Positions 118 through 15,548 of a DNA stretch of 64,000 bases are shown in pieces. The position numbers and the translations under genes are program-made. A model generated the notes under the pieces. That model was not told the DNA's origin, searched no databases, and saw only the letters and a list, made by a program, of their open reading frames with translations. The stretch lies in assembly GCA_018819405.1 (NCBI GenBank), contig JAHJQF010000001.1, positions 290,097 to 354,096 on the forward strand. The letters are read 5' to 3'. Every line of letters starts with the position of its first letter. Positions within the stretch are counted from its first letter, which is position 1. Source of the DNA: Patescibacteria group bacterium. GTDB taxonomy: Bacteria; Patescibacteriota; Patescibacteriia; UBA1558; GWA2-36-10.

Positions 118-531
118 ATGAGTACCGCCGTTGTTTCTCAGGCCAGATTGTTCTGGCGTAAGCTTGGTTGGTGGCAAGCGTTGACCATCGTCGTGGTGCT
201 GGCCGCCTTCTTCATCGCCTTGCACTTGACGGGTCAGAAGGAATTGGCCGGACTGATCGCCGCTCTTGTTGTGGCCTTCATCATGTTTGTCAGTGGAGCT
301 TATGCCGCCTTCACAAATTCTCCGGCTCCGCTCATTCCCACCGCTGTCCTCGCTATTGGTGTTTTTACTGTCATGATCACTCAAGTCGCCATCCTCTTAG
401 TTGGTGTTGTAGGATTAGTTTTTATCATGCTTAACCTTGAAGTGAGACAGTATGGTATCAAGAAGAGAGTTGTCTGGCTCTCATCTACAGTGGAGTTCGT
501 CGCCATTCTCCTTCCCATTTTACTGGCCTAG
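118..531 (+). CDS. small polytopic membrane protein, high-GC, paralog A
   Basis: ATG at 118 follows a strong RBS. Hydrophobic 137-aa product, GC much higher than surroundings. N- and C-termini are conserved with the 15114-15548 paralog. Intrinsic terminator downstream. Confidence 0.6.
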   Translation: MSTAVVSQARLFWRKLGWWQALTIVVVLAAFFIALHLTGQKELAGLIAALVVAFIMFVSGAYAAFTNSPAPLIPTAVLAIGVFTVMITQVAILLVGVVGLVFIMLNLEVRQYGIKKRVVWLSSTVEFVAILLPILLA

Positions 532-546
532 GCCAGCCCCTGCCAC

Positions 547-583
547 GAGACCCGGGTTAGAATAGGGTCTCTTCTTTTTTTCT
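547..583 (+). terminator. rho-independent terminator (GAGACCC-loop-GGGTCTC + T-run)
   Basis: Perfect 7-bp inverted repeat followed by T8. Duplicated at 15564-15597. Confidence 0.7.
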
Positions 584-650
584 CAAAAAATTCCCAAACA
601 AAAAACAATCTCTAAAAGATTGTTTTATAATATGAATAGAAAATTCGATT

Positions 651-746
651 TCATACAACAGACAAGCGTATGCGAAGTCGTGATTGAGCCTATGTGGTAA
701 AATTCGCGTAGCGACCACATAGGCGAAAGAACGATTTGGGTGAGCG
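651..746. repeat. Site-A copy 1 (~95 bp: 5' arm CAACAGACAAGCGTATGCGAAGTC, variable covarying stem-loop, 3' box GATTTGGGTGAGCGG)
   Basis: Stem 688-697 (CCTATGTGGT) pairs with 713-722 (ACCACATAGG). The 3' box abuts the stop of minus ORF 749-1102. Confidence 0.8.
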
Positions 747-748
747 GA

Positions 749-1102
749 CTAAATATCTTCCATAATCATTTCTTCTACCGCACGTTGTAATTTAAATAAA
801 TCTATATTGTTTGTTTTAAAAGCAGGTGCAGGTTGATATACGGGATTTTTGAAATTAATTTTTTCTATATTTCCTTGCTCATCAAATTTAATATACCCTT
901 CTGTTAATGTGCTATCGGGGTCAACTCCATAATTATCTGATAAACCTTTGTGAAACTTAGAGGTTATAAATATAGTAAAATTTTCAGTAACAGAAAATAC
1001 CCAAGTCCGCTGTTCTCTATCAATATCTACTTTACGTAATTTTAATAGAGCCTTATAGTCTATTTTTTCTGGTGATGATGGATTTTCAAAATGTTCATTC
1101 AT
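749..1102 (-). CDS. hypothetical protein (array cargo)
   Basis: 117-aa ORF flanked by Site-A (3') and Site-B (5'). Confidence 0.5.
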   Translation of the reverse strand: MNEHFENPSSPEKIDYKALLKLRKVDIDREQRTWVFSVTENFTIFITSKFHKGLSDNYGVDPDSTLTEGYIKFDEQGNIEKINFKNPVYQPAPAFKTNNIDLFKLQRAVEEMIMEDI

Positions 1103-1125
1103 AGTATTTTATTTAGTCCGCGAAC

Positions 1126-1154
1126 CGCATACGCGGTGTTGGGTGATGTACGAC
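1126..1154. repeat. Site-B copy 1 (CGCGAACCGCATACGCGGTGTTGGGTGATGT)
   Basis: Reverse-complement of the Site-A 5' arm. Internal CCGC-ATAC-GCGG hairpin. Confidence 0.8.
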
Positions 1155-1168
1155 GAATTCCCAGAATT

Positions 1169-1570
1169 TTATTTATTAAAAGTTTGTTTTATTCTTTTTG
1201 CTATTTCTTCAGGATATAATAGAATATTATCTAAATTATCTAATTTTATCCATTCCAAATTATATTGGTTATTTGGATTATTTCTTCCAGTTTCAGGCCA
1301 ACCTAATTTAATTTTTCCTTCAAATGTTTTAGCTAAGAAATAATATCCGTAATGGTGCTCATCTTTATATTCCCAAAGTAATTTATCCAAAACTATGTCT
1401 AAATTAGTTTCTTCTTTTATTTCTCTAATAGCGGTTTCTTCAGATTTTTCGTTTTTTTCTATTGTTCCTCCAGGAAATGCATAATACTCGTTATCATTTT
1501 TAATTCTATGTATTAAAAGAATTTTTTCATCTTTGATTATAATTACTGCTGATCTTTTATGATATTGCAT
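1169..1570 (-). CDS. Nudix hydrolase
   Basis: Nudix box GGTIEKNEKSEETAIREIKEETNL (GX5EX7REUXEEXGU). Confidence 0.75.
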   Translation of the reverse strand: MQYHKRSAVIIIKDEKILLIHRIKNDNEYYAFPGGTIEKNEKSEETAIREIKEETNLDIVLDKLLWEYKDEHHYGYYFLAKTFEGKIKLGWPETGRNNPNNQYNLEWIKLDNLDNILLYPEEIAKRIKQTFNK

Positions 1571-1602
1571 AGTTTTAAAAAATTCTGGGAATGAGGAGTA
1601 TT

Positions 1603-1700
1603 TCGCCTAACAGACAAGCGTATGAGAAGTCACGAGTGACTGGAGGTGATAGAATCGCACGGAGTGCTATCACCGAAAGGAACGAGTGATTTGCGCGAAG
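1603..1700. repeat. Site-A copy 2
   Basis: CCTAACAGACAAGCGTATGAGAAGTC arm. Stem GGTGATAG (1645-1652) pairs with CTATCACC (1667-1674), loop AATCGCACGGAGTG. Box GATTTGCGCGAAG. Confidence 0.8.
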
Positions 1701-1713
1701 AGAAATAAAGTTT

Positions 1714-1753
1714 TTGCTTAATTATTGACTAATTACTATATAAATGATAGGGT
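1714..1753 (+). promoter_or_regulatory. putative promoter for ORF 1820-2146, with CTGGCTAGGCCAG palindrome at 1767-1781
   Basis: TTGCTT/TTGACT -35 candidates and a TATATA -10. Palindrome lies between promoter and RBS AAAGGAGGTG. Confidence 0.4.
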
Positions 1754-1819
1754 ATTTTATTAGTTCTGGCTAGGCCAGAGTAGTTCATTACTCTAAACCT
1801 CTGAAAGGAGGTGAAAAAT

Positions 1820-2146
1820 ATGTCTTCCAATTTGGTTGGTTTGAAACTCGATGGCTACACTGTCCAGAAGGTGTTCGAAGTCTTCAGGGTCGACGAAGAC
1901 GGCATGAAGGTCAAGTCAGTCGACTTCTTCATGGACGGTGGTGTAGCCACAGCTTGGACTCAAGGTCTGGCTGACCGCCACTTCCACAAGACCGTCGAAG
2001 TGCTCGTCATCAGCAACGGTGAAAGCCATTTCCTTTTCGGAGGAGAGGAAGTCAACATCCACGATGACACGAGTGCCCTTCTTCAGGTTCGACAGAAGGC
2101 TCTGTCCAAGCTGACTTCGGAAGAACGGGCTGTACTCGGCCTGTGA
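1820..2146 (+). CDS. hypothetical protein, high-GC, opposite strand to array
   Basis: ATG 1820 is 8 nt after AAAGGAGG. ~58% GC in a ~30% GC context. Own terminator at 2153-2191. Confidence 0.55.
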   Translation: MSSNLVGLKLDGYTVQKVFEVFRVDEDGMKVKSVDFFMDGGVATAWTQGLADRHFHKTVEVLVISNGESHFLFGGEEVNIHDDTSALLQVRQKALSKLTSEERAVLGL

Positions 2147-2152
2147 TCATTT

Positions 2153-2191
2153 GCCGCCTGGCCTGAAAACTGGGCGGCTCTTTTATTTTTT
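2153..2191 (+). terminator. rho-independent terminator
   Basis: GCCGCC-TGGCCTGAAAACTG-GGCGGC followed by a T-run. Confidence 0.65.
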
Positions 2192-2207
2192 AAAAAACTT
2201 TATTTCT

Positions 2208-2239
2208 CTTCGCCTCATACGCGGTGATAGATGATGACC
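2208..2239. repeat. Site-B copy 2 (variant CTTCGCCTCATACGCGGTGATAGATGATGACC)
   Basis: Shares the CATACGCGGTG core and the GATGAT/GATGT tail. Confidence 0.65.
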
Positions 2240-2251
2240 AATTCCATGGCG

Positions 2252-3004
2252 TTATAAATTATTAATTTTTTTATAGGTAGCTATACCCGTACAATGAAGT
2301 TGTTGTCCATCTAAGACATGGTCATACTTTATATTATTATTAGATATATATTCTATTAGCCAATTTTTGATGTCAGTATTTATAAATTTTAATAAATATT
2401 TAGTTTGGTTGTTTATGAAATTTATTATCTGTAGTGTCTCAACTTTTTTGCGACCTCTTTCATCAATATATGTTTTTTCTGGTCCATTACTATTTATCAT
2501 AGCAAATGACAATGGTTTCGTTCCAAATATGACTATTTGAGATTTGTAATGAATTATTTTTTCTCTTTGTTCTTTTAATTTGAAAATCCATTTTTTATTT
2601 TTGTCTAATATTTTTTTTAATGCAATGTCTATAGTAGGTTTTTTTTCTAACGATTTATATAAATCATGTATACTCATTTCTTGGTCTTGCGGATGAGCAG
2701 GGCCTGTGGGGGTTTTTAGATTTCTGGTATTTTTTGGCAATGTCTGCCATATTATATAAGCTATATCGTTTAGTAATATTCTTTGTCTTATTATAAAACT
2801 TTCTAGATCAGCTGCTATATTATAGTGGTTTGGTTCGTTTTTGTTAGTTTCAGAAATTATTCGATCGTAGTATAAAAAAAGTCTAGATAGTGACCAAAAA
2901 ATAGCATTTGTATTGAAATAATAATGTTTTTTGAAGTGTTGAAAGCCAAAATTGGTAAGCACATCAAAAATTGGCAATTCTAAATATTCATTTTTTCTTA
3001 TCAT
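2252..3004 (-). CDS. hypothetical protein (array cargo)
   Basis: 250-aa ORF with no recognisable motif. Confidence 0.5.
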   Translation of the reverse strand: MIRKNEYLELPIFDVLTNFGFQHFKKHYYFNTNAIFWSLSRLFLYYDRIISETNKNEPNHYNIAADLESFIIRQRILLNDIAYIIWQTLPKNTRNLKTPTGPAHPQDQEMSIHDLYKSLEKKPTIDIALKKILDKNKKWIFKLKEQREKIIHYKSQIVIFGTKPLSFAMINSNGPEKTYIDERGRKKVETLQIINFINNQTKYLLKFINTDIKNWLIEYISNNNIKYDHVLDGQQLHCTGIATYKKINNL

Positions 3005-3024
3005 ATATAATGGAATTGGTTTTC

Positions 3025-3120
3025 ATCTATCAGGCTAGTGTATGCGAAGTTCTGCTTGAATTTTATGCTAAAATAGCACGGAGTGCAAGCATAAAATGAA
3101 AAGTAGAATTTGGGTGGAGC
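3025..3120. repeat. Site-A copy 3
   Basis: Stem ATTTTATGCT pairs with AGCATAAAAT, loop AAAATAGCACGGAGTGCA. Box GAATTTGGGTGGAGC. Forms a ~195-bp composite with Site-B copy 3 that is duplicated at 14767-14962. Confidence 0.8.
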
Positions 3121-3186
3121 AGTGTTAGTTTAGTTTAAACTATATAAAAACAGATAAATATTACTTTACCTGTTCTTTGATATTGC

Positions 3187-3220
3187 TTCGCGAAACCGCA
3201 TACGCGGTGTTGGCTGATGT
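3187..3220. repeat. Site-B copy 3
   Basis: CGCGAAACCGCATACGCGGTGTTGGCTGATGT. Ends 2 nt before the stop of ORF 3222-4025. Confidence 0.8.
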
Positions 3221-3221
3221 T

Positions 3222-4025
3222 TTAATTAAATTTTGTCTTTAATTCTTCCAAAGTTTTTCGCATTAATTCATCTGCTTTTTTGCTTTTTTCTTGTATTTCT
3301 TCAATGGAGTTTGTTTTGTATAAATCTTCGATTTCCTGAACAACTTCTGGTGGCAAATCAACTGACGCATGTTTAAGACCTATGTTTGGCCACTGCGGAG
3401 AATAAAGAAGCCTCAATGCTTCAATAAGTTTGTCTAAAATTAGATCGTGATATATTTTGAGCGCATCAAGATAGTTTTCTCGTTTTAATTCTCGTTCTAG
3501 ACACATGTTACGAAGAGAAACTCGGGCTTCAATATTTTCGATTTGAGCTATAATATTTTTGCGTTCATTTTCTTCGCTTCCTGATTCAGTTTCTAAAATA
3601 CCTTTTTTGTCGAACAATGTGGTTTTACCCTGTGCTTTTAATTTCGTAGAGTCAGAGTATGTTTGCAGAGTAATATCGATAATTAAAAATTTTGATGTGC
3701 CCTGCACATGATAAAGCATTTTGGGCCAATCATATCCAGGTCGTGTATGTTCAAGTTTAAAATCAATATTCGACAATGCGGCTTCTATCGTTTGAATAAC
3801 GCTTTCTATATTTTCGTCTTCTATGACAAGACGTACATCGATATCAGAATATTCGTCCACGGTACCATGTACATCTGCTCCTTCAAGAAAAAAAGCAAAA
3901 ACAGATGAATTGCCTTCAAGAGCGCTATGAAGCTGATCAATAATTTCTTTTCTCTTCTCTATTGTATTTTCTGGTTTTTGTTCGTTTTCTTGCCCTATGT
4001 TTATAGGTAACTCGTTCTTATTCAT
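3222..4025 (-). CDS. nucleotidyltransferase-domain protein
   Basis: G-x(n)-DID motif (LEGADVHGTVDEYSDIDVRLV) typical of the Pol-beta-like NTase fold. Substrate unknown. Confidence 0.5.
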   Translation of the reverse strand: MNKNELPINIGQENEQKPENTIEKRKEIIDQLHSALEGNSSVFAFFLEGADVHGTVDEYSDIDVRLVIEDENIESVIQTIEAALSNIDFKLEHTRPGYDWPKMLYHVQGTSKFLIIDITLQTYSDSTKLKAQGKTTLFDKKGILETESGSEENERKNIIAQIENIEARVSLRNMCLERELKRENYLDALKIYHDLILDKLIEALRLLYSPQWPNIGLKHASVDLPPEVVQEIEDLYKTNSIEEIQEKSKKADELMRKTLEELKTKFN

Positions 4026-4045
4026 ATTTAAAATTTAATTAATAT

Positions 4046-4142
4046 TTCAGCTAACAGACGTGCGTATGCGAAGTCGTGACTGAGCGAATATGATAAAATT
4101 ATTTGAAATCATATTTGCGAAAGAATGATTTGGGTGAGCGAG
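4046..4142. repeat. Site-A copy 4
   Basis: AGCTAACAGACGTGCGTATGCGAAGTC arm. Stem AATATGAT pairs with ATCATATT. Box GATTTGGGTGAGCGAGCCC. Confidence 0.8.
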
Positions 4143-4151
4143 CCCTTTTTA

Positions 4152-4334
4152 TTATTTGTCTTTTTCTTCAGTAGGTGGCACATAAATAACATCTTTTTTA
4201 TTATTAGGATTTATGCCTTCGCTAATTAGGTAATCCTCGTGCTCTTTGTTAAGTTCAGAAACCTCTCTTGTAAAAATACGAAATCCGATATATGCCAGAG
4301 CAGGTACTATAGGTATAAGTAATTTCCAATCCAT
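4152..4334 (-). CDS. small membrane protein (60 aa)
   Basis: N-terminal TM helix. Flanked by Site-A and Site-B. Confidence 0.4.
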   Translation of the reverse strand: MDWKLLIPIVPALAYIGFRIFTREVSELNKEHEDYLISEGINPNNKKDVIYVPPTEEKDK

Positions 4335-4354
4335 ATTTTTTTGTTAATTATTTA

Positions 4355-4391
4355 GCTCGCGAACCGCATACGCGGTGATAGGTGATGTGAT
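4355..4391. repeat. Site-B copy 4
   Basis: AGCTCGCGAACCGCATACGCGGTGATAGGTGATGTGAT. Confidence 0.8.
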
Positions 4392-4409
4392 AAAAATTTT
4401 AATATTTTA

Positions 4410-5219
4410 TTACCAATAACCGTTTTGATTATTTTGCCTAGCATTCCTTTTTTTGAATTCTCTTTCTTCAATAGAATTATACAGCGCAGTTTTTAGGATT
4501 TTAATATCATTATTGTCTAGATAATTTAGAAAATCATCAATGGTCTTTTTTGATACAACATCAATTAGAAAATATTCTGGCTTGTCTTTATATGTGTATT
4601 CAACTTCAATTTCAAAATTATTTTTAATATCTTCATATTTATTACCATCACTAGCCGCTCGTTTAAATTTAGTGAAGTCAGGGACTAATATTAGTGGATA
4701 ATTTACAGTGTTGTAGTTTCCACCTCTTTTATTGGAGTAAAAGAGACTTGCATGCATGACTTCGTTTTTTGCTTTATCCAAGATCTTGTTATCATTTTCT
4801 GTACTAAATTCCTTTACGGCTTCATTATCTTTTAAATAATGGTGCATCTTATTTTCGTAATTTAGGTAAAAATCTTCTTGATTTTGAAGGATGGGATTAT
4901 TTTTTGCTAATTGTTTAGACTTTATTGGATCTTTATCTAAAAACCAAAATACTATATGTGGTTTAATATACTTACACTCTATTATTAATCTTATCGTTAA
5001 TGTCTCTGTAGAATTACTGAACATACCACCGCCAACTTGAATATTTTTTTCAGCAATTATATCAATTTCTCTAGGTTTATTTTCAACAGGATCATTATAG
5101 TGTGGGCTATTTGTCACTGTCCATTCTTTTTCTTCTAATAATTTTGAAATTGTTAAGTGAAAGTCATGTCCACTGTCTCCCATTATTTTTTCTATGATTT
5201 TACCAGTATCTTTTTCCAT
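4410..5219 (-). CDS. hypothetical protein, possible PD-(D/E)xK nuclease fold
   Basis: REIDIIAEK ... IIECKY resembles a D...ExK nuclease motif. Weak. Confidence 0.4.
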   Translation of the reverse strand: MEKDTGKIIEKIMGDSGHDFHLTISKLLEEKEWTVTNSPHYNDPVENKPREIDIIAEKNIQVGGGMFSNSTETLTIRLIIECKYIKPHIVFWFLDKDPIKSKQLAKNNPILQNQEDFYLNYENKMHHYLKDNEAVKEFSTENDNKILDKAKNEVMHASLFYSNKRGGNYNTVNYPLILVPDFTKFKRAASDGNKYEDIKNNFEIEVEYTYKDKPEYFLIDVVSKKTIDDFLNYLDNNDIKILKTALYNSIEEREFKKRNARQNNQNGYW

Positions 5220-5234
5220 AAAATTTTTATTATT

Positions 5235-5333
5235 TCATCTATCAGGACAGGGTATCCGAAGTTCCGAAGCGAATAGCGTGCTAAACTTTCTGCGAAGCAG
5301 AGCACGCAAATGAGCGAGGAATTTGGATGAGCG
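5235..5333. repeat. Site-A copy 5
   Basis: CATCTATCAGGACAGGGTATCCGAAGTTCC arm. Stem GCGTGCT pairs with AGCACGC. Box GAATTTGGATGAGCGGG. Confidence 0.75.
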
Positions 5334-5353
5334 GGTAAGAAAAATTATCCTTA

Positions 5354-5641
5354 TTAATTCCTAACAAATGAGCCTATTAAAGTAAGGATAGCCGTTATTG
5401 CATATAGAATAGAAAAGATTGTTCCGTGGGCATTTTTGATTTTCTTTTTTAAAATCAAATAAGGTATTATTTCAAGTATGAGTGTCATAAAAAGTATGCC
5501 AATAATGCCACCAAGTAATTGGAAGATATCCGAACCATTTATTGCCAGCGAAGCAATAACGGATATAATTAAGCCACTATATGCAAGGATTTTTACATAC
5601 ATAGGTGACTCTTTGAGGTTTAAATTTAGTCCCACTTTCAT
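5354..5641 (-). CDS. small membrane protein (95 aa)
   Basis: Three predicted TM helices. Confidence 0.45.
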   Translation of the reverse strand: MKVGLNLNLKESPMYVKILAYSGLIISVIASLAINGSDIFQLLGGIIGILFMTLILEIIPYLILKKKIKNAHGTIFSILYAITAILTLIGSFVRN

Positions 5642-5680
5642 AATTTTATATTAATTATTTTATTTGTAAAATTTTTCTTA

Positions 5681-5725: not shown

Positions 5726-6076
5726 TTAAATACCCCATTCTGATATTAGTTTTAAAATGGATGGCCATTGAGAAGTGAAGACCATAGCAATGATCACAAT
5801 TATCACACCTATAATGATTAAGCCGACGGGTCGTTCAAACCACGTTTTCATAGCATTCAAGTCCGACATAACCTTAGATGTTTTTATGTAGAGCGCAGGA
5901 TTGCTTCCAGAATTATTGATATATCCATTTGCTTTTAGAAACTCGTAGTAGATTTTTTGCGCATCACTACTACTTACATTTAAGCCATTTTGAAGGTCTT
6001 GAAAATTAAATCCAGCATCAGGTGTTTTTGAAACCCATTTAAGAATCTTTTTTATTGGAATATTTGCTATTTTCAT
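5726..6076 (-). CDS. hypothetical protein with C-terminal TM helix
   Basis: 116-aa ORF. Confidence 0.45.
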   Translation of the reverse strand: MKIANIPIKKILKWVSKTPDAGFNFQDLQNGLNVSSSDAQKIYYEFLKANGYINNSGSNPALYIKTSKVMSDLNAMKTWFERPVGLIIIGVIIVIIAMVFTSQWPSILKLISEWGI

Positions 6077-6102
6077 AAATTACACAATAAGGAAAATCTG
6101 TA

Positions 6103-6203
6103 TTTCGCCTAACAGACGTGGATTGCCGAAGTTGTGAGAGAGTGAAGTGGCTAAACTTTCGGCGGAGCCGAGCCACGAAACGAACGAGCAATTTGGATGA
6201 GCA
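6103..6203. repeat. Site-A copy 6
   Basis: CGCCTAACAGACGTGGATTGCCGAAGTTG arm. Stem GTGGCT pairs with AGCCAC, loop AAACTTTCGGCGGAGCCG. Box CAATTTGGATGAGC. Confidence 0.75.
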
Positions 6204-6205
6204 AA

Positions 6206-6694
6206 TTAATAAAAATATTTATTTAATACAAATAAACATTCAGGATGAAATTTTCCACCGTTGCTAATCATTTTTTTTATTTCCTCTTTTGTGAAAAATT
6301 GTACTTTTGTAACTTCATTAGGGTCAATATTAAATTCCCCATTATATTTTCCTTTAAAGAAAGTGCTAAAATGTTTGCGCCCATCATCAAGTTCAATGTA
6401 ATGTTTGCCCAATAATTCTAATTCAGTTTTGACACCAATTTCTTCAAAAAGCTCTCTTTTAGCACATCCAAAATAGTCTTCCCCAGAATCTACATGACCA
6501 CCGCCACTACAGTCCCAATAGGAAGGGTAGTTATAACTATTTTCCGAACGTAATTGGAGAAGAATTTCATCTTCATCATTTATAATCATAATATTAGACA
6601 CTCTCAAAATATCTGATTTTTTAGCAGACTTTCTATCGATTATTTTTAGTACTTTATCATTTTTGTCTACTACTTCTACTAGTTCTAATTTCAT
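6206..6694 (-). CDS. Nudix hydrolase
   Basis: Nudix box GGGHVDSGEDYFGCAKRELFEEIGV. Confidence 0.7.
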   Translation of the reverse strand: MKLELVEVVDKNDKVLKIIDRKSAKKSDILRVSNIMIINDEDEILLQLRSENSYNYPSYWDCSGGGHVDSGEDYFGCAKRELFEEIGVKTELELLGKHYIELDDGRKHFSTFFKGKYNGEFNIDPNEVTKVQFFTKEEIKKMISNGGKFHPECLFVLNKYFY

Positions 6695-7413: not shown

Positions 7414-8331
7414 CTAAGCTGTGTGCTTTTTATATGATTGCTCTATAAGGGTCAATATATAAGAAGTTTCATCTTTAGGAGTTATTACAATTTCATAATC
7501 ACCATTTCCCCAATGGCCAATATTTGATACATCTTTAGCAATGCCCTTTGGATCATTTAGTTGTCCCTTTTTTAGATTTATCCAAATTTTAATCTTTGAT
7601 TTTTTTAGTTCAAAATCTACAAAATTTGTATCAGCAATAAATCCTATATAATATTTTCTTGGTCTTACAGTTATATTGTCAGATATGTTTAAAATTTTTT
7701 CCTTTATTTCTTCATATTTATTTTTTACCTCTTCCGGCAGACTTTCTAAATGTTTTTCTTCCGAGTAAATTTTTATTTCTCTGCTAACTTTTTCTACGAC
7801 ATCACTTTTAGAGCTTATTTTGTTTATTGATTCGCTAGATTCAGGGGATTGTAGTTGATTATATAATATTGTATTATTTTCAAATTTTGATATCTCCCAT
7901 AATTCAATTGGTAGATCCTTAAAATTTATTGCTTGTTTTTGGTATTTTGTAAATTCAGGGGAAATAAAAATTACACGAGATTGAGACCAGTCTACATCTT
8001 CTCGTTTTAAGCTCTGATTTTTACTTTCGTTATATTCAAGTATAAAATCAGCCTTGTTATTGAGTAATAAAGAAAGATAAGCATAACCTTGATCTATTAC
8101 GCTAAAATTTCTATCCTTTTTGTATTCTATTATAACAAAAGCCTTTAGTTCATTATCAAAGGCCAGCGAATCTATTCTCAATCCATTTAGAGCAACTTCT
8201 GACTTGATAAAATCTAAGGAAAAAATTTCATTAAGATTTTTTTCAGTTGTTGACTGTATTTCCCGCTCGTTTTTAAAAGCGGATTCTTTTATTTTTTTGA
8301 GATTTGTATGAGATGTATCAAATATTGGCAT
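7414..8331 (-). CDS. hypothetical protein, possible PD-(D/E)xK-like
   Basis: LRIDSLAFD...VIIEYKKD resembles a D...ExK core. Weak. Confidence 0.4.
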
Positions 8332-9071: not shown

Positions 9072-9100
9072 ATTTATATTTTATCATTAGAGGACAATTG

Positions 9101-9219
9101 CGTCTAACAGACAAGCGTATCTGAAGTTTTCTGCGAAACGAAGCTGTTATAATTATTGCGCGAAGTGGAGCGTAGCGCAAGAGCAGCGGAGTTGAGTAGA
9201 AAATTTGGGTGAAGTAGGA
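9101..9219. repeat. Site-A copy 8
   Basis: CGTCTAACAGACAAGCGTATCTGAAGTT arm. Stem TTGCGC pairs with GCGCAA. Box AAAATTTGGGTGAAGTAGG. Confidence 0.7.
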
Positions 9220-9243
9220 GAGAAAAAGCCTATTTTAAAGATA

Positions 9244-9272
9244 TTGACATATTATAGATATTCTGGTATTTT
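9244..9272 (+). promoter_or_regulatory. sigma70-like promoter (TTGACA-17-TATTTT) for ORF 9326-9517
   Basis: TTGACA at 9244-9249. RBS GAGGAGG lies before ATG 9326. Confidence 0.5.
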
Positions 9273-9325
9273 ATATTGTTCGTTCCCTGCATTATTCACC
9301 ACCAACCTAGTGAGGAGGACAGCTC

Positions 9326-9517
9326 ATGTCAGTATCAGAGGAGAGGAAATTGCTCGAGAAGATCATCCGAGCGAAGGTTCGCTTGGAAGACATGAAGGTC
9401 GAGCACAAGGAGGCTTGCCCTGCCGAAGATCCATTGATGGCAGGACAGTGCACCTGTGGTGCCGATACCCTGAACGGCCAGATCAACGCCGTTCTCCGCG
9501 AACTCTCTCTCGACTAG
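9326..9517 (+). CDS. small high-GC protein (63 aa), opposite strand
   Basis: Strong RBS, ~58% GC, CxC...C motif. Terminator at 9541-9571. Confidence 0.5.
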   Translation: MSVSEERKLLEKIIRAKVRLEDMKVEHKEACPAEDPLMAGQCTCGADTLNGQINAVLRELSLD

Positions 9518-9540
9518 TGGGACAGACTCAGTCCTGTCTC

Positions 9541-9571
9541 GGCGCTCTGCAACTGCGGGGCGCTTTTTTTT
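9541..9571 (+). terminator. rho-independent terminator
   Basis: GGCGCTCTGCAACTGCGGGGCGC followed by T9. Confidence 0.6.
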
Positions 9572-9585
9572 ATTTTTCTCTCCTA

Positions 9586-9616
9586 CTTCACCAGATACGC
9601 GGTGTTAGCTGATGTA
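9586..9616. repeat. Site-B copy 8
   Basis: CTTCACCAGATACGCGGTGTTAGCTGATGTA. Confidence 0.7.
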
Positions 9617-9663
9617 TTCCTTTTCTAGAATTTACTTTTTAAATATTTAAATTTCTTTTTTCA

Positions 9664-9716: not shown

Positions 9717-12290
9717 TTATCTATTTTCAGAAAAACGTATATCTCTTGCATGCAACATTGTTTTTAGGCTTTCAGTAAATTTTAAGGATTCTTTTAGTGC
9801 TTCCTTCTTTGTATCTCCTTTTGGAATTGGAATTAAGAAGTATTCATTCCAAGCGTCTGTTTTTAATTCAGGTTGACTGGCTGTCTGAGCTAAATAATAT
9901 CCTTGTTTTTTGCATAAATCGCTTCTTAACGAATACCATAACAGCATACTTTCTTCTAAATTTTTTGTTTTAAATACCCAAAAGCCAGATGTACAAATAA
10001 AATTTTCCATTTCTTTTGGTACCAGCATAACAGTTCCTCGTGAACTAATGTTTATCGCCATTAGAACATCATTTTCTTGAATTTTGTATTGTCCACGCGA
10101 TGGTAGGTTTTCAAAATTGTCAGTTAAGTAGTTTATTGGCAAGCCATAGTCAGTTACGTCACTAATTTCAATATAATGAAATTGTTTGTTTTTAAATTCA
10201 TTTTTTTGCAGGCCATTAATTTTAGCTCTTTTTTTTACGTCTATACCTTTTTTAATTTCAATTTTATCTTTGTCGGCGAGCTCTAAAATTTTATTCCAGG
10301 TATTTTTTAACTCAGGCGCATAGAAAAAAGCATCTAATCTATCAATTATTAATTCTTCTGGTGGAGTAATCCAAATTTGTTCCGGACATTCTAAGTTTTC
10401 ATTTTTGTTTTGATTTTCTTTAATTGTTGGTTTCAGTATCCCTGTTCGTTTCCATTCTAAATAAGATACTAAAATATCAGTTAAATTATTACGCTCTAAG
10501 GTGTCTCTGAGGGAGTTGTCGTGTCCAATATTATTACTTATAGACATAAAAATGTGACTTTGTCGTTCATCATCATTTTGTTTTTTCCGTAGATGTAAAA
10601 TTGACGTTTTTATATTTGCCTTTGCCTTGAAGAATGCGTTAAATGGTAAAGAATGAACTCCTAAAATTATAAATTTATCTACTATCCAGTTTCGAACATT
10701 TTGTTGATTTTTCCCGTTTAATACTGTGTCGTCAAGAACCAGTAATATTTCGCCACCTGATTTCAGTAATTTCCAATATCGATCCAAAAATAAAATATTT
10801 GATTTTGCACTTTTCATCCCGTCTGCAATATGGCGCTGGTCTAATATATCTGTTTCATCTTCATTATTTCTGTCATACACCATGCTAAACGGAGGGTTTG
10901 TTAGTACCAAGTCAAAGCTATTTTCCATGATTTTTGTTTGCATTGCTTCAATTTCAGATTTTCTTTCATCTTTCATGTCTTCTGCAATTTTTGGAAAATC
11001 GTCCAATCCATCGCCGTGAAATATGTGACTACCACCATCGCCGTGTAAATACATATTAATTCTAGCAATTCTTGCAACACGTTCATTTGCTTCAATGCCA
11101 AATAATTGTTCATTACAGATCTTGTTTTTAATTATTTCTTTTTCTGTATTACTAAAGCGTGTATCATCTCTCAATCCAGATAATAAATAAGCCATAACTT
11201 CAATGAGAAAACCAGCTGTTCCTGCACATGCATCCATAACTTTTGGCGGATTTTTAATATCCACATTACATAAGGCAATTCGGGTCATAAAGTCAACAAC
11301 TGGTCGGGGTGTAAAATATTGCCCCAATGCTCGTCCTCTTACGGCAGCGTTTAAGAACACTTCAAACATTCGTCCGTTAAGGTCTTCATCAATTGAGCTA
11401 AGATTAATTTTTTCAAATATTTTTATTAGATCTTGGCAGGTGGAGGCACTCAATTTAAAAGTTTCATTTTCTTCAAAAATTCTACGTTTTTTGTCTCTAT
11501 GTATTGCAGCTTCTAAATCGTCTCGTAATTTATTAAAAAGAATGTCTCGCACAGGATGTTTTGATGTTGATTTTTGAGCATCTAACCACTCGCTGGTAAG
11601 TGGAATTTTATATGTTGGGATGTCTTCATTATTTTGTCCTCTTTTTTTATCCTCATTAATCTTAATGAATATAAATTTACAAAATTCAAAAAAAGCATCA
11701 GTAGGGCTAAGTTTTTCCCTCTTCCAAATTAAATCATGCGTTTGCTGAAAGATTTTATTCAATTCGTCAGGCGAAACGATTTCAAATTTTAATCCATCAC
11801 CGTGCACTACTTCATCAGCAGTTTTATACTTGATATAACTTCTTAGATTGGTATAGGCTGGTGAACCACTGGCAAAATCTGATAACTGTAATGTTACGAT
11901 TGGTGTACTGCTGTCCCATTTGAATAACGAAGTTATAAAACCATTACTGATTAATAACCACTTGACCTTTTCTTTGTCTAATTTATCTCGGTTATAACTA
12001 AGAGCATAGCTTGCAGCTTGTCCCCATGCTTCGTTTATGGATTTATTTGGATCCTTAGCCTCTACTACTACTTTTGCATTTCCATTGCTACCAAGTAATA
12101 AAAAATCTATTTCAATTTTTATTTTTTTGGATCCATCATTAGCCATCAAATTAAGGAGTCTTTTTTTGGGGATAACAGATTGATCTGTATAGCCGAGATC
12201 ATTAAATAATTTTGCCAAGAGCCTAGTTTCTACCTCGGCTTCGGTTTTTAAGTCTTTTAAATTAAGTTGAAATAGAGTACTTTGGCTCAT
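9717..12290 (-). CDS. Type IIG-like restriction-modification enzyme / N6-adenine DNA methyltransferase with HsdR-N-type N-terminal domain
   Basis: Motif I DACAGTAGFL, motif IV LTNPPF, an HsdM-like helical domain, an N-terminal Type-I-R N-terminal-like domain and a long C-terminal extension. 857 aa. Confidence 0.7.
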   Translation of the reverse strand: MSQSTLFQLNLKDLKTEAEVETRLLAKLFNDLGYTDQSVIPKKRLLNLMANDGSKKIKIEIDFLLLGSNGNAKVVVEAKDPNKSINEAWGQAASYALSYNRDKLDKEKVKWLLISNGFITSLFKWDSSTPIVTLQLSDFASGSPAYTNLRSYIKYKTADEVVHGDGLKFEIVSPDELNKIFQQTHDLIWKREKLSPTDAFFEFCKFIFIKINEDKKRGQNNEDIPTYKIPLTSEWLDAQKSTSKHPVRDILFNKLRDDLEAAIHRDKKRRIFEENETFKLSASTCQDLIKIFEKINLSSIDEDLNGRMFEVFLNAAVRGRALGQYFTPRPVVDFMTRIALCNVDIKNPPKVMDACAGTAGFLIEVMAYLLSGLRDDTRFSNTEKEIIKNKICNEQLFGIEANERVARIARINMYLHGDGGSHIFHGDGLDDFPKIAEDMKDERKSEIEAMQTKIMENSFDLVLTNPPFSMVYDRNNEDETDILDQRHIADGMKSAKSNILFLDRYWKLLKSGGEILLVLDDTVLNGKNQQNVRNWIVDKFIILGVHSLPFNAFFKAKANIKTSILHLRKKQNDDERQSHIFMSISNNIGHDNSLRDTLERNNLTDILVSYLEWKRTGILKPTIKENQNKNENLECPEQIWITPPEELIIDRLDAFFYAPELKNTWNKILELADKDKIEIKKGIDVKKRAKINGLQKNEFKNKQFHYIEISDVTDYGLPINYLTDNFENLPSRGQYKIQENDVLMAINISSRGTVMLVPKEMENFICTSGFWVFKTKNLEESMLLWYSLRSDLCKKQGYYLAQTASQPELKTDAWNEYFLIPIPKGDTKKEALKESLKFTESLKTMLHARDIRFSENR

Positions 12291-12379
12291 ATTGGTTTAA
12301 TTTAGTTTTTATACTATTTATAATACAAGTATAATTCATTTAAAATAAAAACACAATTCTGAGATATAAATAAATCGTT

Positions 12380-12435
12380 TCCGAAGCGTAGCGGAGGAAA
12401 CATCTGCTCCTGCCGACAGGCAGGTTCCCCTCCTA
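12380..12435. repeat. GC-rich nested hairpin (GGAGG...CCTGCCGACAGGCAGG...CCTCC)
   Basis: Perfect inner hairpin CCTGCC-GACA-GGCAGG nested in a GGAGG/CCTCC outer stem. Begins with the CGAAGCGTAGCGG segment shared with 8367-8386. Confidence 0.5.
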
Positions 12436-12514
12436 AAAAAAGAAAAAGAAATTTGTAATTTTTAAAAATAATTGTTTGTTAAATGCCGAAAAAGAAAAGG
12501 AATATTTCAGCTAA

Positions 12515-12603
12515 CAGACGTGCGTATCTGAAGTTCCGAAGCGAGTGGCGTGGTAAAATTGCGCGGAGCGCACCACGCAAACGAGCGAGGAATTTGGGTG
12601 AGT
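12515..12603. repeat. Site-A copy 9
   Basis: AGCTAACAGACGTGCGTATCTGAAGTTCC arm. Stem GCGTGGT pairs with ACCACGC, loop AAAATTGCGCGGAGCGC. Box GAATTTGGGTGAGTAAG. Confidence 0.8.
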
Positions 12604-12606
12604 AAG

Positions 12607-13065
12607 TTAAATAAAATCTTTATACTGCTCTTCAATAGGAGGATTGGAAAAATAAGCCAATACACTATTACCAGATTCCATTAATTCTATCATTTCAAAA
12701 CCGTCTCTAGGTATTAATTTAAAATTATTTTTGCCCAAATTTTCTTTTTTAAAATTTTCGTAATTTTTCACTGTAAAATCTGCATCGCCCCTTTCTTTTT
12801 TATTAGGATCAAATTCTCTAATTTTTAATACTCTAATAGTTCTTCCTATAGGCTCATTTAATATGAATATAGGGCCACTGTATGTGTCTTTCAATTTTTC
12901 ACCAAATTTTTTTACTTCTTCAATCAATTCCTTATATTCTTCTTCAGTTTGGGCAAAAATACAAGCCCAAGTCGCTATAGCACCATGTTCTTTGGTATAT
13001 TTATCTTTAAGAGCAATAGCTCTCATTAGTATTTCTTGAACGATAATTTTTTTTAAATCTACCAT
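12607..13065 (-). CDS. hypothetical protein
   Basis: 152-aa ORF. Confidence 0.45.
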   Translation of the reverse strand: MVDLKKIIVQEILMRAIALKDKYTKEHGAIATWACIFAQTEEEYKELIEEVKKFGEKLKDTYSGPIFILNEPIGRTIRVLKIREFDPNKKERGDADFTVKNYENFKKENLGKNNFKLIPRDGFEMIELMESGNSVLAYFSNPPIEEQYKDFI

Positions 13066-13087
13066 AGTTTTATAAAGATTTTATTTA

Positions 13088-13124
13088 ACTTACGAACCAG
13101 ATACGCGGTGATAGGTGATGTACA
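13088..13124. repeat. Site-B copy 9
   Basis: ACTTACGAACCAGATACGCGGTGATAGGTGATGTAC. Confidence 0.75.
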
Positions 13125-13182
13125 TTTTTTCTTAAACTTTAAAGAGTTTTATTTCTTAAAAGTAGAATTTGATTTTTATCAA

Positions 13183-13240
13183 TTTTGGCGAGGGCGCAGA
13201 GGGGGTTAGGGGGTGAATGCGCCCGAGCCAAAGGCGCTTT
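13183..13240 (+). repeat. G-rich element copy 2 (GGCGAGGGCGCAGAGGGGGTTAGGGGGTGAATGCGCCCGAGCC)
   Basis: Homologous to 9664-9710. Preceded by an AAGTAGAATTTGA box remnant. Confidence 0.6.
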
Positions 13241-13255
13241 GTCTAATTTATAATT

Positions 13256-14077
13256 TTATTTTGCTTCTACACTTTTTATTATTTGTTTAGTTAACTCATT
13301 AAAGATTACAAAAAACATTTGAGAGTCCTGTGGTTCTAAAAAGATTTTTAATCTTAATTGTTTTTCGGGGTGTATTAGATTTCTATATTCCATTATAGTA
13401 GTGCCTATGTCTTTTGCTGGTTTTCTCACCCAGCCCATAGAGAATGATACATCAATAAAATTACTTAGTGTCCACTCCGATAAATTACGAGGTTTTTTAG
13501 TTTTTGGGTCTATTGGGGTTGTTTTTTGTTTAAAAATAGTACTTTTATCTGTTAATTTATTTATGCGCGCAAGAAAAAATGCTTCCAGTAATCCACCCAT
13601 CATTACTGTGGCAGCAAGAGGTGCTACATTGATGCAGTTTTGGATTTCATCGAAACGACTATATATGATTTGTTGCATGTAGTCATCTTGTACAAGATTT
13701 TCTAATGAAGTAATATTTTTATTTTCTACTTTTGGTTTTTGGTTTGTTATTGTTTCGGATTGCAATTTTATTAGTTTACCTCTTAATCCCTTAATAAGGG
13801 ATAGGTATTTATTTTTACTAGTAGCTGAATGCGACCATTCATTTATTAGTAGATAGTCATCATTAATTTTAGTATATAGTTCAGAATCTACGCATAAAGG
13901 AGAAAAAATATTTTTATATTTTTCGAACCACGCTAAAGAAATTGTTCTTATAAACTCACGTGTAGATTTTGAACGTATTTGATCTCCGCTTTCTTTTCGC
14001 AATATTTTTTTAAGACGTTCAGCTTCATCTAGTAAGGTAATTAAAATATTTGAAATATTGCTGTCGTTAATTGCCAT
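13256..14077 (-). CDS. hypothetical protein
   Basis: 273-aa ORF. Confidence 0.45.
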   Translation of the reverse strand: MAINDSNISNILITLLDEAERLKKILRKESGDQIRSKSTREFIRTISLAWFEKYKNIFSPLCVDSELYTKINDDYLLINEWSHSATSKNKYLSLIKGLRGKLIKLQSETITNQKPKVENKNITSLENLVQDDYMQQIIYSRFDEIQNCINVAPLAATVMMGGLLEAFFLARINKLTDKSTIFKQKTTPIDPKTKKPRNLSEWTLSNFIDVSFSMGWVRKPAKDIGTTIMEYRNLIHPEKQLRLKIFLEPQDSQMFFVIFNELTKQIIKSVEAK

Positions 14078-14088
14078 AGCTAGAGTGA

Positions 14089-14643
14089 TTATTTTTTCTT
14101 TTTAGTATTTCTTACAATTTTTTTTCTTTTCTTTGATGTAGTTGCAGTACTTTCTGTATTTGGAAGAACCATTGCAACAAGATTTTCTCCAACACTGTTT
14201 AATCTGTATGCACCTCTTGAAATATTGTCTAAATACCCAGCTTTAGTTGCATTTACTAAAGTTTGATCTGGACGTTTTATCCTAGTTCTCCCCACAAGTC
14301 TTGTGGCCTCTATTAAATCATTCATTGATATGGTGTCCTTTTTTTCACTTGCTTCAAATTGATAATAGTAGGCAACAGCGGCAGCAAAATGATTATCGGA
14401 AGATGGTTTTTTTCCATCAATAAAAGTTTTTATATCTCTAGATGTTGTATGTTGAGTCGATGCATTTTGAGTTATGTTATTAAGGATATCAGGCTTTATC
14501 TCTTGTGTAATTCCGGGTATATTAATATTTAATTTTTCGCATGCCCATCGCATGGTTTGTAGTTGTTCGTCTTCTGGAAGTGTTTGTATTAAGTTGACGA
14601 TTTCACGCAATACGTCATAGGAATCTTTTTTTTGATCACTCAT
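14089..14643 (-). CDS. hypothetical protein with lysine-rich C-terminal tail
   Basis: 184 aa ending KKRKKIVRNTKKKK. Co-modular with 13256-14077 (11-nt gap). Confidence 0.45.
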   Translation of the reverse strand: MSDQKKDSYDVLREIVNLIQTLPEDEQLQTMRWACEKLNINIPGITQEIKPDILNNITQNASTQHTTSRDIKTFIDGKKPSSDNHFAAAVAYYYQFEASEKKDTISMNDLIEATRLVGRTRIKRPDQTLVNATKAGYLDNISRGAYRLNSVGENLVAMVLPNTESTATTSKKRKKIVRNTKKKK

Positions 14644-14766
14644 ATTGTTTAGTTGTTAGTTAATATTATATTTATTTATTTCAACCCCCTAACTAAAATA
14701 GATAAAAATCAAATTTGTATAATTTAAATTTTAGCTTATCTTAGCCAAAAAGGAAAAATGTATGTC

Positions 14767-14868
14767 ATCTATCAGACGTGCGTATGCGAAGTTCTACTTG
14801 AATTTTATGCTAAAATAGCACGGAGTGCAAGCATAAAATGAAAAGTAGAATTTGGGTGGAGCTGTTTT
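14767..14868. repeat. Site-A copy 10 (duplicate of copy 3)
   Basis: Identical stem-loop ATTTTATGCT-AAAATAGCACGGAGTGCA-AGCATAAAAT. Confidence 0.8.
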
Positions 14869-14929
14869 AGTTTAGTCTAAACTATATAAAAACAGATAAA
14901 TTTTACTTTACCTGTTCTTAAATAATGCT

Positions 14930-14962
14930 TCGCGAAACCGTATACGTAGTGTTGTCTGATGT
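14930..14962. repeat. Site-B copy 10 (degenerate: CGCGAAACCGTATACGTAGTGTTGTCTGATGTCG)
   Basis: Position-equivalent to Site-B copy 3 inside the duplicated composite. Confidence 0.65.
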
Positions 14963-15015
14963 CGAATTTTCTTAGACATTTACTATTATTTAGGGGAATT
15001 TTTGGGTTTTTAAGG

Positions 15016-15044
15016 TTGACAAGATATAGTGTTTATGATATATT
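15016..15044 (+). promoter_or_regulatory. sigma70-like promoter (TTGACA-17-TATATT)
   Basis: Paralogous copy of the promoter at 18-46. Confidence 0.6.
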
Positions 15045-15113
15045 ATTTTGTTAACTAAAATCGGTCAATTCAGGCCATTGGTTGTGTTCCTCAAACTTGG
15101 AAGGAGTAATTTC

Positions 15114-15548
15114 ATGACTACCACCGTTGTTTCCCAGGGTAGCTTGTTCTGGAACAAGCTCGGCAAGTGGCAGATGCTGGCAGTTCTGTTAACTTTGGTG
15201 GTTTTCTTCGTTGCCCTAGGAATGGGTAATAAGGAGACTGCCGGCACCATCTCTGCTCTCACGCTTGCTGCCGTCACTCTGACTGTTCTCACTGTCGCCG
15301 CCCTCGTTCTCGCTGTCCCTTCCGCCGTTCCCTTCGTATTCCTTTTCGCTGCTGCTACTGCCAGCATCGCCTTCGCTTTCGTTAAAGGTGTTGCCATTAT
15401 TCCCGGCATCGCCTTCGCCGTCGCTGAAGGAATTGCTGTCACCCTTGCCGTCGCTGAGGTGAAGAAGTACGGCATCAGGAAGAGGATTGTTTGGTTTTCC
15501 TTCGCGGCGGAGTTTGCGTGTATCGTCCTTCCCATGTCACTGGCTTAG
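15114..15548 (+). CDS. small polytopic membrane protein, high-GC, paralog B
   Basis: N-terminus MTTTVVSQGSLFWNKLGKWQ matches paralog A's MSTAVVSQARLFWRKLGWWQ. C-terminus KKYGIRKRIVWFSFAAEF matches RQYGIKKRVVWLSSTVEF. Alanine- and valine-rich core. Confidence 0.6.
   Translation: MTTTVVSQGSLFWNKLGKWQMLAVLLTLVVFFVALGMGNKETAGTISALTLAAVTLTVLTVAALVLAVPSAVPFVFLFAAATASIAFAFVKGVAIIPGIAFAVAEGIAVTLAVAEVKKYGIRKRIVWFSFAAEFACIVLPMSLA

Follow-up and report, generated by a model that had tools for sequence, protein, structure and literature searches.

What is the nature of a handful of small GC-rich genes that lie within an AT-rich cassette array and run against its direction? The question is raised by a stretch of 64,000 nucleotides (hereafter the window) from a metagenome-assembled genome (MAG) of Patescibacteria, also known as the candidate phyla radiation (CPR). 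Window positions 1 to ~16800 are occupied by the cassette array, in which 19 open reading frames (ORFs), all on the minus strand, define the array direction and are separated by two families of short repeats, D2 and D3; the remaining part contains core genes (RNR, SUF/NifU, AhpC, SOD and PFOR; GC content 33–45%) together with GC-richer accessory islands. Four further ORFs in the array are encoded on the plus strand. Judging from the sequence, we hold with moderate confidence that these genes are moron-like cassettes, constitutively expressed and insulated, which would form a second class of cassettes in the arrays of Patescibacteria. The four ORFs are:

118–531, plus strand: membrane protein copy A, 137 aa, about five predicted helices, conserved termini and variable hydrophobic core
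1820–2146, plus strand: orphan soluble protein, 108 aa, rich in beta structure and with helices at the C-terminus, weak cupin-like motif
9326–9517, plus strand: 63-aa protein, helix, Cys-containing loop, helix
15114–15548, plus strand: membrane protein copy B, 144 aa, identical to NCBI MBU1202718.1 (hypothetical protein KKH39_01605)

An earlier reading of the same DNA (the original prediction) had placed four ORFs on the strand opposing the array, and their orientation and coordinates agree with our analysis, as does the GC content of ~30% ascribed to their surroundings (23–34% in the array-direction ORFs). The estimate of ~55–60% GC for the four genes themselves was too high: the coding sequences contain 50.2, 52.6, 54.7 and 54.3% GC (in the order listed above), and only 150-nt peaks reach 56–61%. 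The contrast nevertheless holds, the four units differing from the array by 20–25 percentage points. GC content at third codon positions (GC3) is 0.58–0.69 in the four genes, as compared with 0.13–0.31 in the array-direction ORFs and 0.26–0.46 in the core genes of the window, and just 6–12% of third positions in the GC-rich genes are occupied by A.

Each ORF is accompanied by predicted signals for transcription and translation (SD, Shine–Dalgarno):

18–46, plus strand: promoter of membrane copy A, TTGACA-17-TATACT with TGn extension, conserved in the related loci L003, L007 and L010
1725–1753, plus strand: promoter of the 108-aa gene, TTGACT-17-TAGGGT with TGn, the weakest of the four
9244–9272, plus strand: promoter of the 63-aa gene, TTGACA-17-TATTTT with TGn, conserved in loci L014, L016 and L017
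15016–15044, plus strand: promoter of membrane copy B, TTGACA-17-TATATT with TGn
103–110 and 15099–15106, plus strand: SD sites of both membrane genes, GGAAGGAG
1804–1813, plus strand: SD site of the 108-aa gene, AAAGGAGGTG
9310–9319, plus strand: SD site of the 63-aa gene, GTGAGGAGGA
547–571 with U run to 581, plus strand: intrinsic terminator of copy A, GAGACCC-11 nt-GGGUCUC
15564–15588 with U run to 15597, plus strand: intrinsic terminator of copy B, 7-bp stem and 11-nt loop
2153–2178 with U run to 2191, plus strand: intrinsic terminator of the 108-aa gene, from scan and folding
9541–9564 with U run to 9574, plus strand: intrinsic terminator of the 63-aa gene, from scan and folding
602–626, minus strand: terminator at the edge of the copy A cassette, hairpin followed by a U run, 93% conserved with 15615–15639
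15615–15639, minus strand: terminator at the edge of the copy B cassette, hairpin followed by a U run

The near-consensus sigma-70 promoter expected at every gene was thus recovered for three of them, whereas the 108-aa gene has the more divergent TTGACT-17-TAGGGT. Strong SD sites with correctly spaced start codons precede all four genes, and all four end in an intrinsic terminator, as had been anticipated. Two terminators were found by the scan; those of the membrane genes, which the scan missed because of their 11-nt loops, both fold as predicted. Outside the array, the same type of promoter, which is native to the organism, precedes the GC-richer genes (GC 0.45–0.48) and is found, for instance, upstream of tRNA genes. 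When IMG/VR was scanned for the terminator motif, none was found. The two minus-strand terminators sit at the array-upstream edge of the membrane cassettes. Promoter-like sites were also noted on the minus strand at 15040–15068 (TTGACC-17-TAATAT) and, at copy A, at 44–72 (TTGGCC-16-TATAGT), their -10 element overlapping the -10 element of the plus strand. As a lead only, such an overlapping site could act as a bidirectional promoter that restarts array-direction transcription past the minus-strand terminator.

The boundaries of the units coincide with the repeats of the array:

643–680, no strand: D2 site bounding the copy A unit, conservation between the copies ending after ..CATACAAC and before AGAC
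15656–15693, no strand: D2 site bounding the copy B unit, from repeat comparison
1600–2247, no strand: attC-like unit holding the 108-aa module, D2 at 1600–1632 and D3 at 2213–2243
9097–9621, no strand: attC-like unit holding the 63-aa module, D2 at 9097–9129, box at 9200–9212 and D3 at 9591–9621

The modules of the 108-aa and 63-aa genes are located inside such attC-like units, and the membrane cassettes in the D3-to-D2 intervals. Conservation of the membrane unit extends from within the GTT of D3 (after G) to within the AAC of D2 (after AA), and the neighbouring unit differs in each locus. In the window, L014 and L016, conservation of the 63-aa unit runs precisely from its D2 to its D3 site; L017 has the unit fused to a half-site of a different cassette, with the junction at the internal ATTTGGGTGA box. 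Within the units, the 63-aa module is flanked by an inverted repeat (9208–9224 and 9576–9592) and the 108-aa module by a unique one (1695–1710 and 2198–2213). These comparisons indicate that both kinds of interval move as units.

Similar units recur in related arrays of other samples. Nine array fragments (the window, L003, L004, L007, L009, L010, L014, L016 and L017) were searched on both strands for the pattern TTGAC[AT]-N16-18-TAnnnT followed by an SD site and a start codon opening an ORF of 30 aa or more. All 13 promoter–SD–ORF units retrieved lie on the anti-array strand and have a spacer of exactly 17 nt; TGn is present in 10 of them. They belong to at least six unrelated families, among them the target gene of a diversity-generating retroelement (DGR) and a gene for 144 aa, both from L004, and a 90-aa gene from L010. 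Their GC content is 0.44–0.58 and GC3 0.48–0.74, GC3 in the array-direction ORFs of the same fragments being 0.17–0.39.

The DGR of L004 (JBAZKN010000004.1) is complete and contained within one array unit (2202–4800). It consists of the target gene (2299–2982, GC 0.57) with variable region 2854–2971, template repeat 3264–3381, bAvd (3415–3852, minus strand) and reverse transcriptase gene (3758–4747); 21 of 22 mismatches fall at adenines of the template repeat. The 2.2-kb fragment L010 contains three self-promoted, GC-rich units in anti-array orientation (with 1518–1900 and 2047–2165 among their coordinates), namely a membrane gene, the 90-aa gene and a truncated gene starting with MKCKICGSQF.

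In order to characterize the proteins, we compared them with several databases. None of the four matched Pfam, NCBIfam, PHROGs or PADLOC, Pfam returned nothing for other GC-rich units, and tblastn searches of GenBank phages with all three families gave no match. A word-indexed protein search with the membrane proteins yielded self-matches only, but a HMMER profile search seeded with both paralogs retrieved 55 clusters of proteins of 130–160 aa, and all genome matches were to Patescibacteria MAGs. Copies A and B are separated by 15 kb within the array, and their amino-acid sequences are 37% identical (E = 7e-24). They are, as had been suggested, paralogous polytopic membrane proteins with conserved ends and a divergent core, and the family repeats this pattern: the N-terminus (SLFWxKLGKWQ...FFITL..GDKE) and C-terminus (KKYGIRKRVVWLSxAAEFxxILLPMLLA) are conserved, and the core (Ala/Val/Ile/Phe/Thr) is highly variable. 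AlphaFold, run on 30 members, predicts five helices (predicted local distance difference test, pLDDT, 72); comparison of the family model with PDB folds produced no meaningful match (best E = 1.5), nor did Pfam match any of 30 family members.

For the closest pair, copy A and L007, the ratio of nonsynonymous to synonymous substitution rates (dN/dS) is 0.33 in the N-terminus, 0.28 in the core and 0.11 in the C-terminus, so the entire protein is under purifying selection. The core evolves fast and contains internal tandem duplications, with no sign of positive selection. Tandem duplications of 30–42 nt were located at 15356–15436 of the window and at 6136–6244 of L004, and are the likely source of variation in core length and sequence. 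We considered the variable core as a possible DGR target and rejected this, since there is no repeat partner in the window and the cores differ by indels and internal duplications; the DGR in L004 targets a different gene. Our best guess for the membrane family is a small five-helix protein in which the conserved first and last helices would do the work and the middle would be a freely evolving hydrophobic spacer.

The flanks of the membrane gene are more conserved than its coding sequence: from the stop codon to +57 identity is 75–92% across six loci, as compared with 50–62% in the coding core, except in the closest pair. GC3 is 0.46–0.76 in eleven members, in hosts whose flanking GC content is ~0.33–0.41, and synonymous sites are saturated between members (dS above 1 for copy A versus copy B). 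No phage, plasmid or high-GC relative of the family was found in the phage and genome searches. Lone members occur in core contexts: the copy in L002 precedes mraZ/rsmH, the one in L006 is placed between glyA and a tRNA/rpsL cluster, and these copies are as GC-rich as those in arrays. In view of the high GC3 that persists despite saturated divergence, and of the searches that retrieved no high-GC reservoir, the composition of the family seems to be maintained, which suggests selection on mRNA or DNA or continual re-import. Two further arrangements were observed. At 4984–6486 of L004, outside the array, a recombinase homologue is followed on the same strand by a membrane-family gene with conserved promoter and terminator. 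L005 carries tandem, more distant paralogs (4333–4863 and 5944–6522; GC3 ~0.47) among genes for small membrane proteins, and each of their UGA stop codons lies in a hairpin loop.

Four homologues of the 63-aa gene (81–95% identity) have dN/dS values of 0.12–0.33, with changes concentrated at third codon positions. A search of PDB sequences with the protein found nothing. A 53-kb phage contig of IMG/VR with ~50% GC encodes a relative that is 55% identical; its gene belongs to a group of small genes in the vicinity of those for a GIY-YIG homing endonuclease and a gp59-like helicase loader. Since the composition of the gene is native in this contig, import from a phage or mobile pool of higher GC content is plausible, and such a pool would be the likeliest source of the 63-aa family. 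The foreign origin or unusual constraint that had been proposed from composition fits, and foreign origin receives direct support, in the form of the phage-contig relative, for this family. The 108-aa ORF displays codon periodicity, which together with its flanking signals and the weak cupin-like motif speaks for a gene. The word-indexed search returned only the 108-aa protein itself, nothing was found among PDB sequences, no phage-borne relative appeared in the phage searches, and the single-sequence AlphaFold model (pLDDT 42) is unusable. A hairpin in the 5' untranslated region (UTR) of this gene (CCUCUG-AAAG-GAGG, ~1797–1812) would sequester the SD site.

Judged by the selection on their reading frames, two of the three families, the membrane and the 63-aa proteins, are products of protein-coding genes. 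Long antisense ORFs run through the GC-rich genes, and a real gene on the antisense strand was considered and rejected: the length of these ORFs ranges from 44 to 156 aa among homologues, and the signal of selection is in the plus-strand frame.

Hairpins are found at both ends of the mRNAs:

523–536, plus strand: stop-codon hairpin of copy A, CUGGCC-UA-GGCCAG, perfect, with UAG at the tip
15540–15553, plus strand: stop-codon hairpin of copy B, one mismatch
1765–1779, plus strand: 5'-proximal hairpin of the 108-aa mRNA, UCUGGC-UAG-GCCAGA
55–86, plus strand: 5'-proximal stem-loop of the copy A mRNA, ACC..GGCC..GGCC..GGT, nine pairs, invariant and without covariation
9519–9540, plus strand: post-stop hairpin of the 63-aa gene, ahead of the terminator, z = -4.3 for the element 9519–9574

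A palindrome at both membrane-gene stop codons and a related one in the 5' UTR of the 108-aa gene had been pointed out, and they are indeed present, although 1–3 nt away from the coordinates given. The pattern CTGGC-N2-6-GCCAG has three matches (523–536, 15540–15553 and 1766–1778) against 0.08 expected by chance; being homologous copies, the two at the stop codons count as one event. All 11 members of the membrane family examined have the stop-codon hairpin (that of L003, missed by the scoring script, was read directly from the sequence), and only 14% of the other stop codons in the window score as well. Four stem sequences occur, CUGGC/GCCAG, GGCUGG/CCAGCC, CUUGCG/CGCGAG and UGCG/CGCA. That the stems differ and several contain G.U pairs suggests that the palindrome acts at the level of RNA. 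The terminator hairpin follows ~10 nt downstream, and most likely the stop-codon hairpin would present the stop codon in a loop upstream of the terminator and stabilise the 3' end or affect termination. The post-stop hairpin of the 63-aa gene displays compensatory changes in homologues (ACAG/CUGU, CAAA/UUUG and CAGA/UCUG). Both the membrane mRNA and the 108-aa mRNA begin with 5'-proximal stem-loops; read on the minus strand, the one at 55–86 contains a possible -35 element (TTGGCC) of a divergent promoter, which we regard as a lead only. Hairpins at both mRNA ends would fit stable transcripts.

The proposal of autonomous, oppositely oriented and self-promoted units with a composition foreign to the array is thereby supported. 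In each unit, a strong sigma-70 promoter of the native type, TTGACA-17-(TGn)TAnnnT, would be followed by a stem-loop at the 5' end, a strong SD site, a GC-rich coding sequence and one or two 3' hairpins, the last being the terminator. Bounded by the recombination sites of the array, the units would behave as mobile array modules, alongside the AT-rich, promoterless cassettes in array direction. With signals of their own and an orientation opposite to that of the array, they would be expressed constitutively at any array position. The minus-strand terminator at the upstream edge of a membrane cassette would shield it from array read-through and, if the divergent minus-strand promoter is present, the cassette would stop array transcription and restart it; the latter is a lead. 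Several points weigh against this picture. Promoters, terminators and insulation are computational predictions throughout. The promoter of the 108-aa gene is weak and its product has no homologue, its coding status being derived from periodicity and signals alone. The nine fragments were found via two of the families, and are hence not an unbiased sample; elsewhere, the anti-array orientation was deduced from adjacent AT-rich ORFs on short contigs. Finally, an imported moron is a poor match for the membrane family, which occurs in core-genome contexts and for which no relative in phages, plasmids or high-GC genomes was found.

Other explanations account for parts of these data. GC-rich islands in genomes of low GC content frequently turn out to be RNA genes; the folding of the whole transcripts is slightly superior to that of shuffled controls (z ~ -2.2) and several frames are open, so that the regions might be non-coding structured RNAs with ORFs that are accidents of high GC. 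We consider this highly improbable. The structure is not common to the membrane paralogs, and the SD sites and start codons are correctly spaced. Rfam at gathering threshold matched only two tRNAs in the whole window, and at a relaxed threshold gave only sub-threshold chance matches in the region 1–2300. Frame, length and hydrophobic pattern are retained across the 55-cluster family even though nucleotide identity in the core falls to about 50–60%, and dN/dS values of 0.11–0.33 with an excess of third-position changes place the reading frame under purifying selection, which contradicts this possibility for two of the three families. It is likewise very unlikely that the four are ordinary highly expressed genes, with high GC and a consensus promoter as the signature of strong expression. 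The presence of the promoter type at tRNA genes and at GC-richer genes outside the array speaks for such a view, but AhpC, SOD, RNR and PFOR, typically abundant proteins, have GC3 of only 0.34–0.39 in the window, and in the related genome L006 GC3 is 0.33 for EF-G, 0.39 for S12 and 0.27 for S7, as compared with 0.75 for the membrane gene; therefore, GC3 is not a marker of high expression here. Moreover, array recombination sites delimit the units, which pass from one array to another. The original prediction had named both of these possibilities as what would overturn it, and these data speak against both.

A toxin–antitoxin (TA) or stabilisation role, also suggested, is not borne out: there is one gene per unit, no antitoxin partner, no convincing antisense promoter and no match to the four databases mentioned above. 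One form of it concerns the membrane cassettes, which might be addiction modules consisting of a type I-like membrane toxin and an antisense RNA, the copies protecting the array from deletion. In chromosomal integrons, the classic example of a self-promoted cassette is the TA cassette (PMC13108822). The membrane proteins are small and hydrophobic with a strong promoter of their own, and both ends of their mRNAs are closed by hairpins, as in type I toxins such as Hok, Fst and TxpA; two copies lie in one array, the copy in L004 is directly beside a recombinase gene, and promoter-like sites on the minus strand are near both cassette ends. Type I toxins are usually under 60 aa and have one helix, and at 130–160 aa with about five helices the family is 2–3 times longer and polytopic. 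No overlapping antisense RNA can be placed from the sequence: the minus-strand site at 15667–15640 runs straight into the minus-strand terminator, and the remaining promoter-like sites point away from the gene or enter a terminator. Nor is there a second gene, as in the two adjacent small genes of a type II operon. Single genes also reside in housekeeping neighbourhoods, next to mraZ/rsmH or glyA/rpsL, and the shared architecture is not specific to toxins, because other GC-rich units encode unrelated soluble proteins; altogether, we regard addiction as unlikely. Somewhat less doubtful, yet still improbable, is that high GC reflects not ancestry but an adaptive constraint of anti-array orientation or autonomous expression, for example one in which avoidance of A at third positions suppresses spurious promoters, terminators or RNase sites, or keeps the antisense strand free of stop codons. 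The GC3 maintained in eleven members despite saturation, the missing high-GC reservoir, the scarcity of third-position A with long antisense ORFs, and the fact that six unrelated families share the trait are all consistent with it. Orientation alone, however, cannot set GC content, which is equal on both strands. Members in core contexts, with no array, are equally GC-rich, and GC content is 0.29 in the L004 reverse transcriptase gene, which occupies the same strand. In addition, the antisense ORFs look like by-products of composition, the minus-strand terminator of the cassette opposes any need for antisense read-through, and the 63-aa family has a natural home of ~50% GC in phage.

Comparison with known systems supports the interpretation as moron-like cassettes in part. 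A phage moron is a gene with its own promoter and terminator and a GC content unlike that of its neighbours (PMC3594210). The units described here share with morons the single gene, the sigma-70 promoter, the factor-independent terminator, deviant GC content, horizontal movement and a product that is often small and uncharacterised, and for the 63-aa family a phage contig supplies a relative. They differ from morons in residing in a chromosomal cassette array rather than in a phage or prophage, in being bounded by recombination sites, in their consistent anti-array orientation and in a membrane family without phage relative. The self-promoted inverted cassettes of sedentary chromosomal integrons, mainly TA cassettes (PMC13108822, PMC8876359, PMC4889954), are similar in having their own promoter, in being independent of the array promoter and often reversed, and in the paralogous copies scattered along one array. 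In the present case, however, the cassettes contain a single gene and no TA pair, match no known TA or defence family and differ from the array by 20–25 points of GC; two of the four units lie inside an attC-like structure, and the recombinase is not a canonical IntI. At the level of the array only, an analogy can be drawn to the pdif (Xer) modules of Acinetobacter plasmids (PMC13141974), in which asymmetric sites are likewise alternately inverted, two classes of modules are each flanked by the same half-site and shuffle individually, some modules have no ORF, and the recombinase is Xer-like. The sites in the window are attC-half-like (RYYYAAC/GTTRRRY with a covarying L box) instead of the 11-6-11 of XerC/D, the array is chromosomal and beside a dedicated recombinase, and promoterless genes keep one orientation.

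Is the array then an integron, as had been assumed? Two further features bear on this question:

14762–14966, no strand: gene-free attC-like unit left of copy B, 205 nt, outer stem and two inner arms
16863–17729, plus strand: tyrosine recombinase adjoining the array, 288 aa, Xer-like, without IntI-specific domain

D2 and D3 represent a single composite site in opposite orientations; it combines an R box (RYYYAAC/GTTRRRY) with a GCGTATGCG-like L box, and its asymmetry of 5 versus 2 nt is constant. The partner of each D2 is the D3 on its right, giving eleven pairs, several of which display pair-specific compensatory changes (GGGTATCC/GGATACCC, GGATTGCC/GGCAATCC and CCATATG/CATATGG). In folds of single-stranded DNA, the reverse complements of D3 and D2 form the outer stem of a branched structure (z = -4.6 and -6.5). 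Inverted repeats with R''/R' boxes and covarying L''/L' boxes, as expected of integrons, are thus present. Integron attC sites are roughly 55–150 nt long and gene-free. The attC-like units of the window, starting at 648, 1600, 3020, 4044, 5232, 6102, 7367, 9097, 12504, 14762 and 15661, are 205–1053 nt long, and nine of the eleven hold an ORF or a promoter–gene–terminator module between their halves; the genes inside are flanked by a unique perfect inverted repeat of 11–17 bp. Instead of a single crossover point, junctions in the cross-locus comparison occur at D2, at D3 and at the internal ATTTGGGTGA box. The stretch from D2 through an arm to the box was considered as a normal attC of ~95 nt and rejected, as its ends do not pair.

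The integron integrase carries an IntI-specific domain of ~35 residues near patch III (PMC4889954). Residues 180–209 of the array recombinase align to residues 169–239 of VchIntIA, a deficit of ~40 residues where this domain sits. The protein is equally similar to XerA (4a8e) and IntI4 (2a3v); it scores 203.8 with TIGR02249, below the cut-off of 265, and 228.6 with NF040815 (XerA/integron integrase), above the cut-off of 220. The integron frame consequently holds for the R- and L-box inverted repeats, but the array departs from integrons in two defining respects, the recombinase without the IntI domain and the long gene-bearing attC-like units. More tentatively, and as a possibility we would rate well below the reading of the four genes themselves, the array may exemplify a hitherto undescribed gene-capture system of Patescibacteria. 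An Xer-like recombinase lacking the IntI domain would act on alternately inverted attC-half-like sites, and genes would be housed in both kinds of interval, including the attC interior. AT-rich, promoterless, array-oriented cassettes would coexist with GC-rich, moron-like, self-transcribed, anti-oriented ones having conserved hairpins at their mRNA ends, with the stop codon in a loop, and the membrane family would be a lineage-specific component with its composition under selection.

A cassette array is usually pictured as an operon-like string of promoterless genes, each expressed according to how far it lies from a single promoter. In the reduced CPR genome studied here, autonomous, insulated and compositionally foreign expression units would make up a sizeable part of the array, and one that recurs. 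Part of the array would then be always on, strong convergent promoters and terminators would partition its transcription, and arrays could trap phage-type genes. The gene-bearing attC-like units and the recombinase without an IntI domain bear on the origin of integrons from Xer systems and on how cassettes are made, and this array context may be more novel than the finding of the four genes itself. The conserved stop-codon hairpin represents a simple RNA element.

As for the other contents of the window, the array cassettes at 9717–12290, 1169–1570, 6206–6694 and 7414–8331 (all on the minus strand) include one for an 857-aa N6-methylase/Eco57I-type protein. Two NUDIX hydrolases and a DUF5655 protein are also among the array cassettes, the majority of the others having no family match. 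Beyond the array, GC-rich stretches (48–55%) are located at 45117–50298, 54589–54969 and 56037–56804 and were probably acquired. One of them is a five-gene sugar-modification operon (GT2, DegT aminotransferase, metalloenzyme, GFO/IDH oxidoreductase and methyltransferase), and the others correspond to a HEAT-repeat gene and a QueC-like gene.

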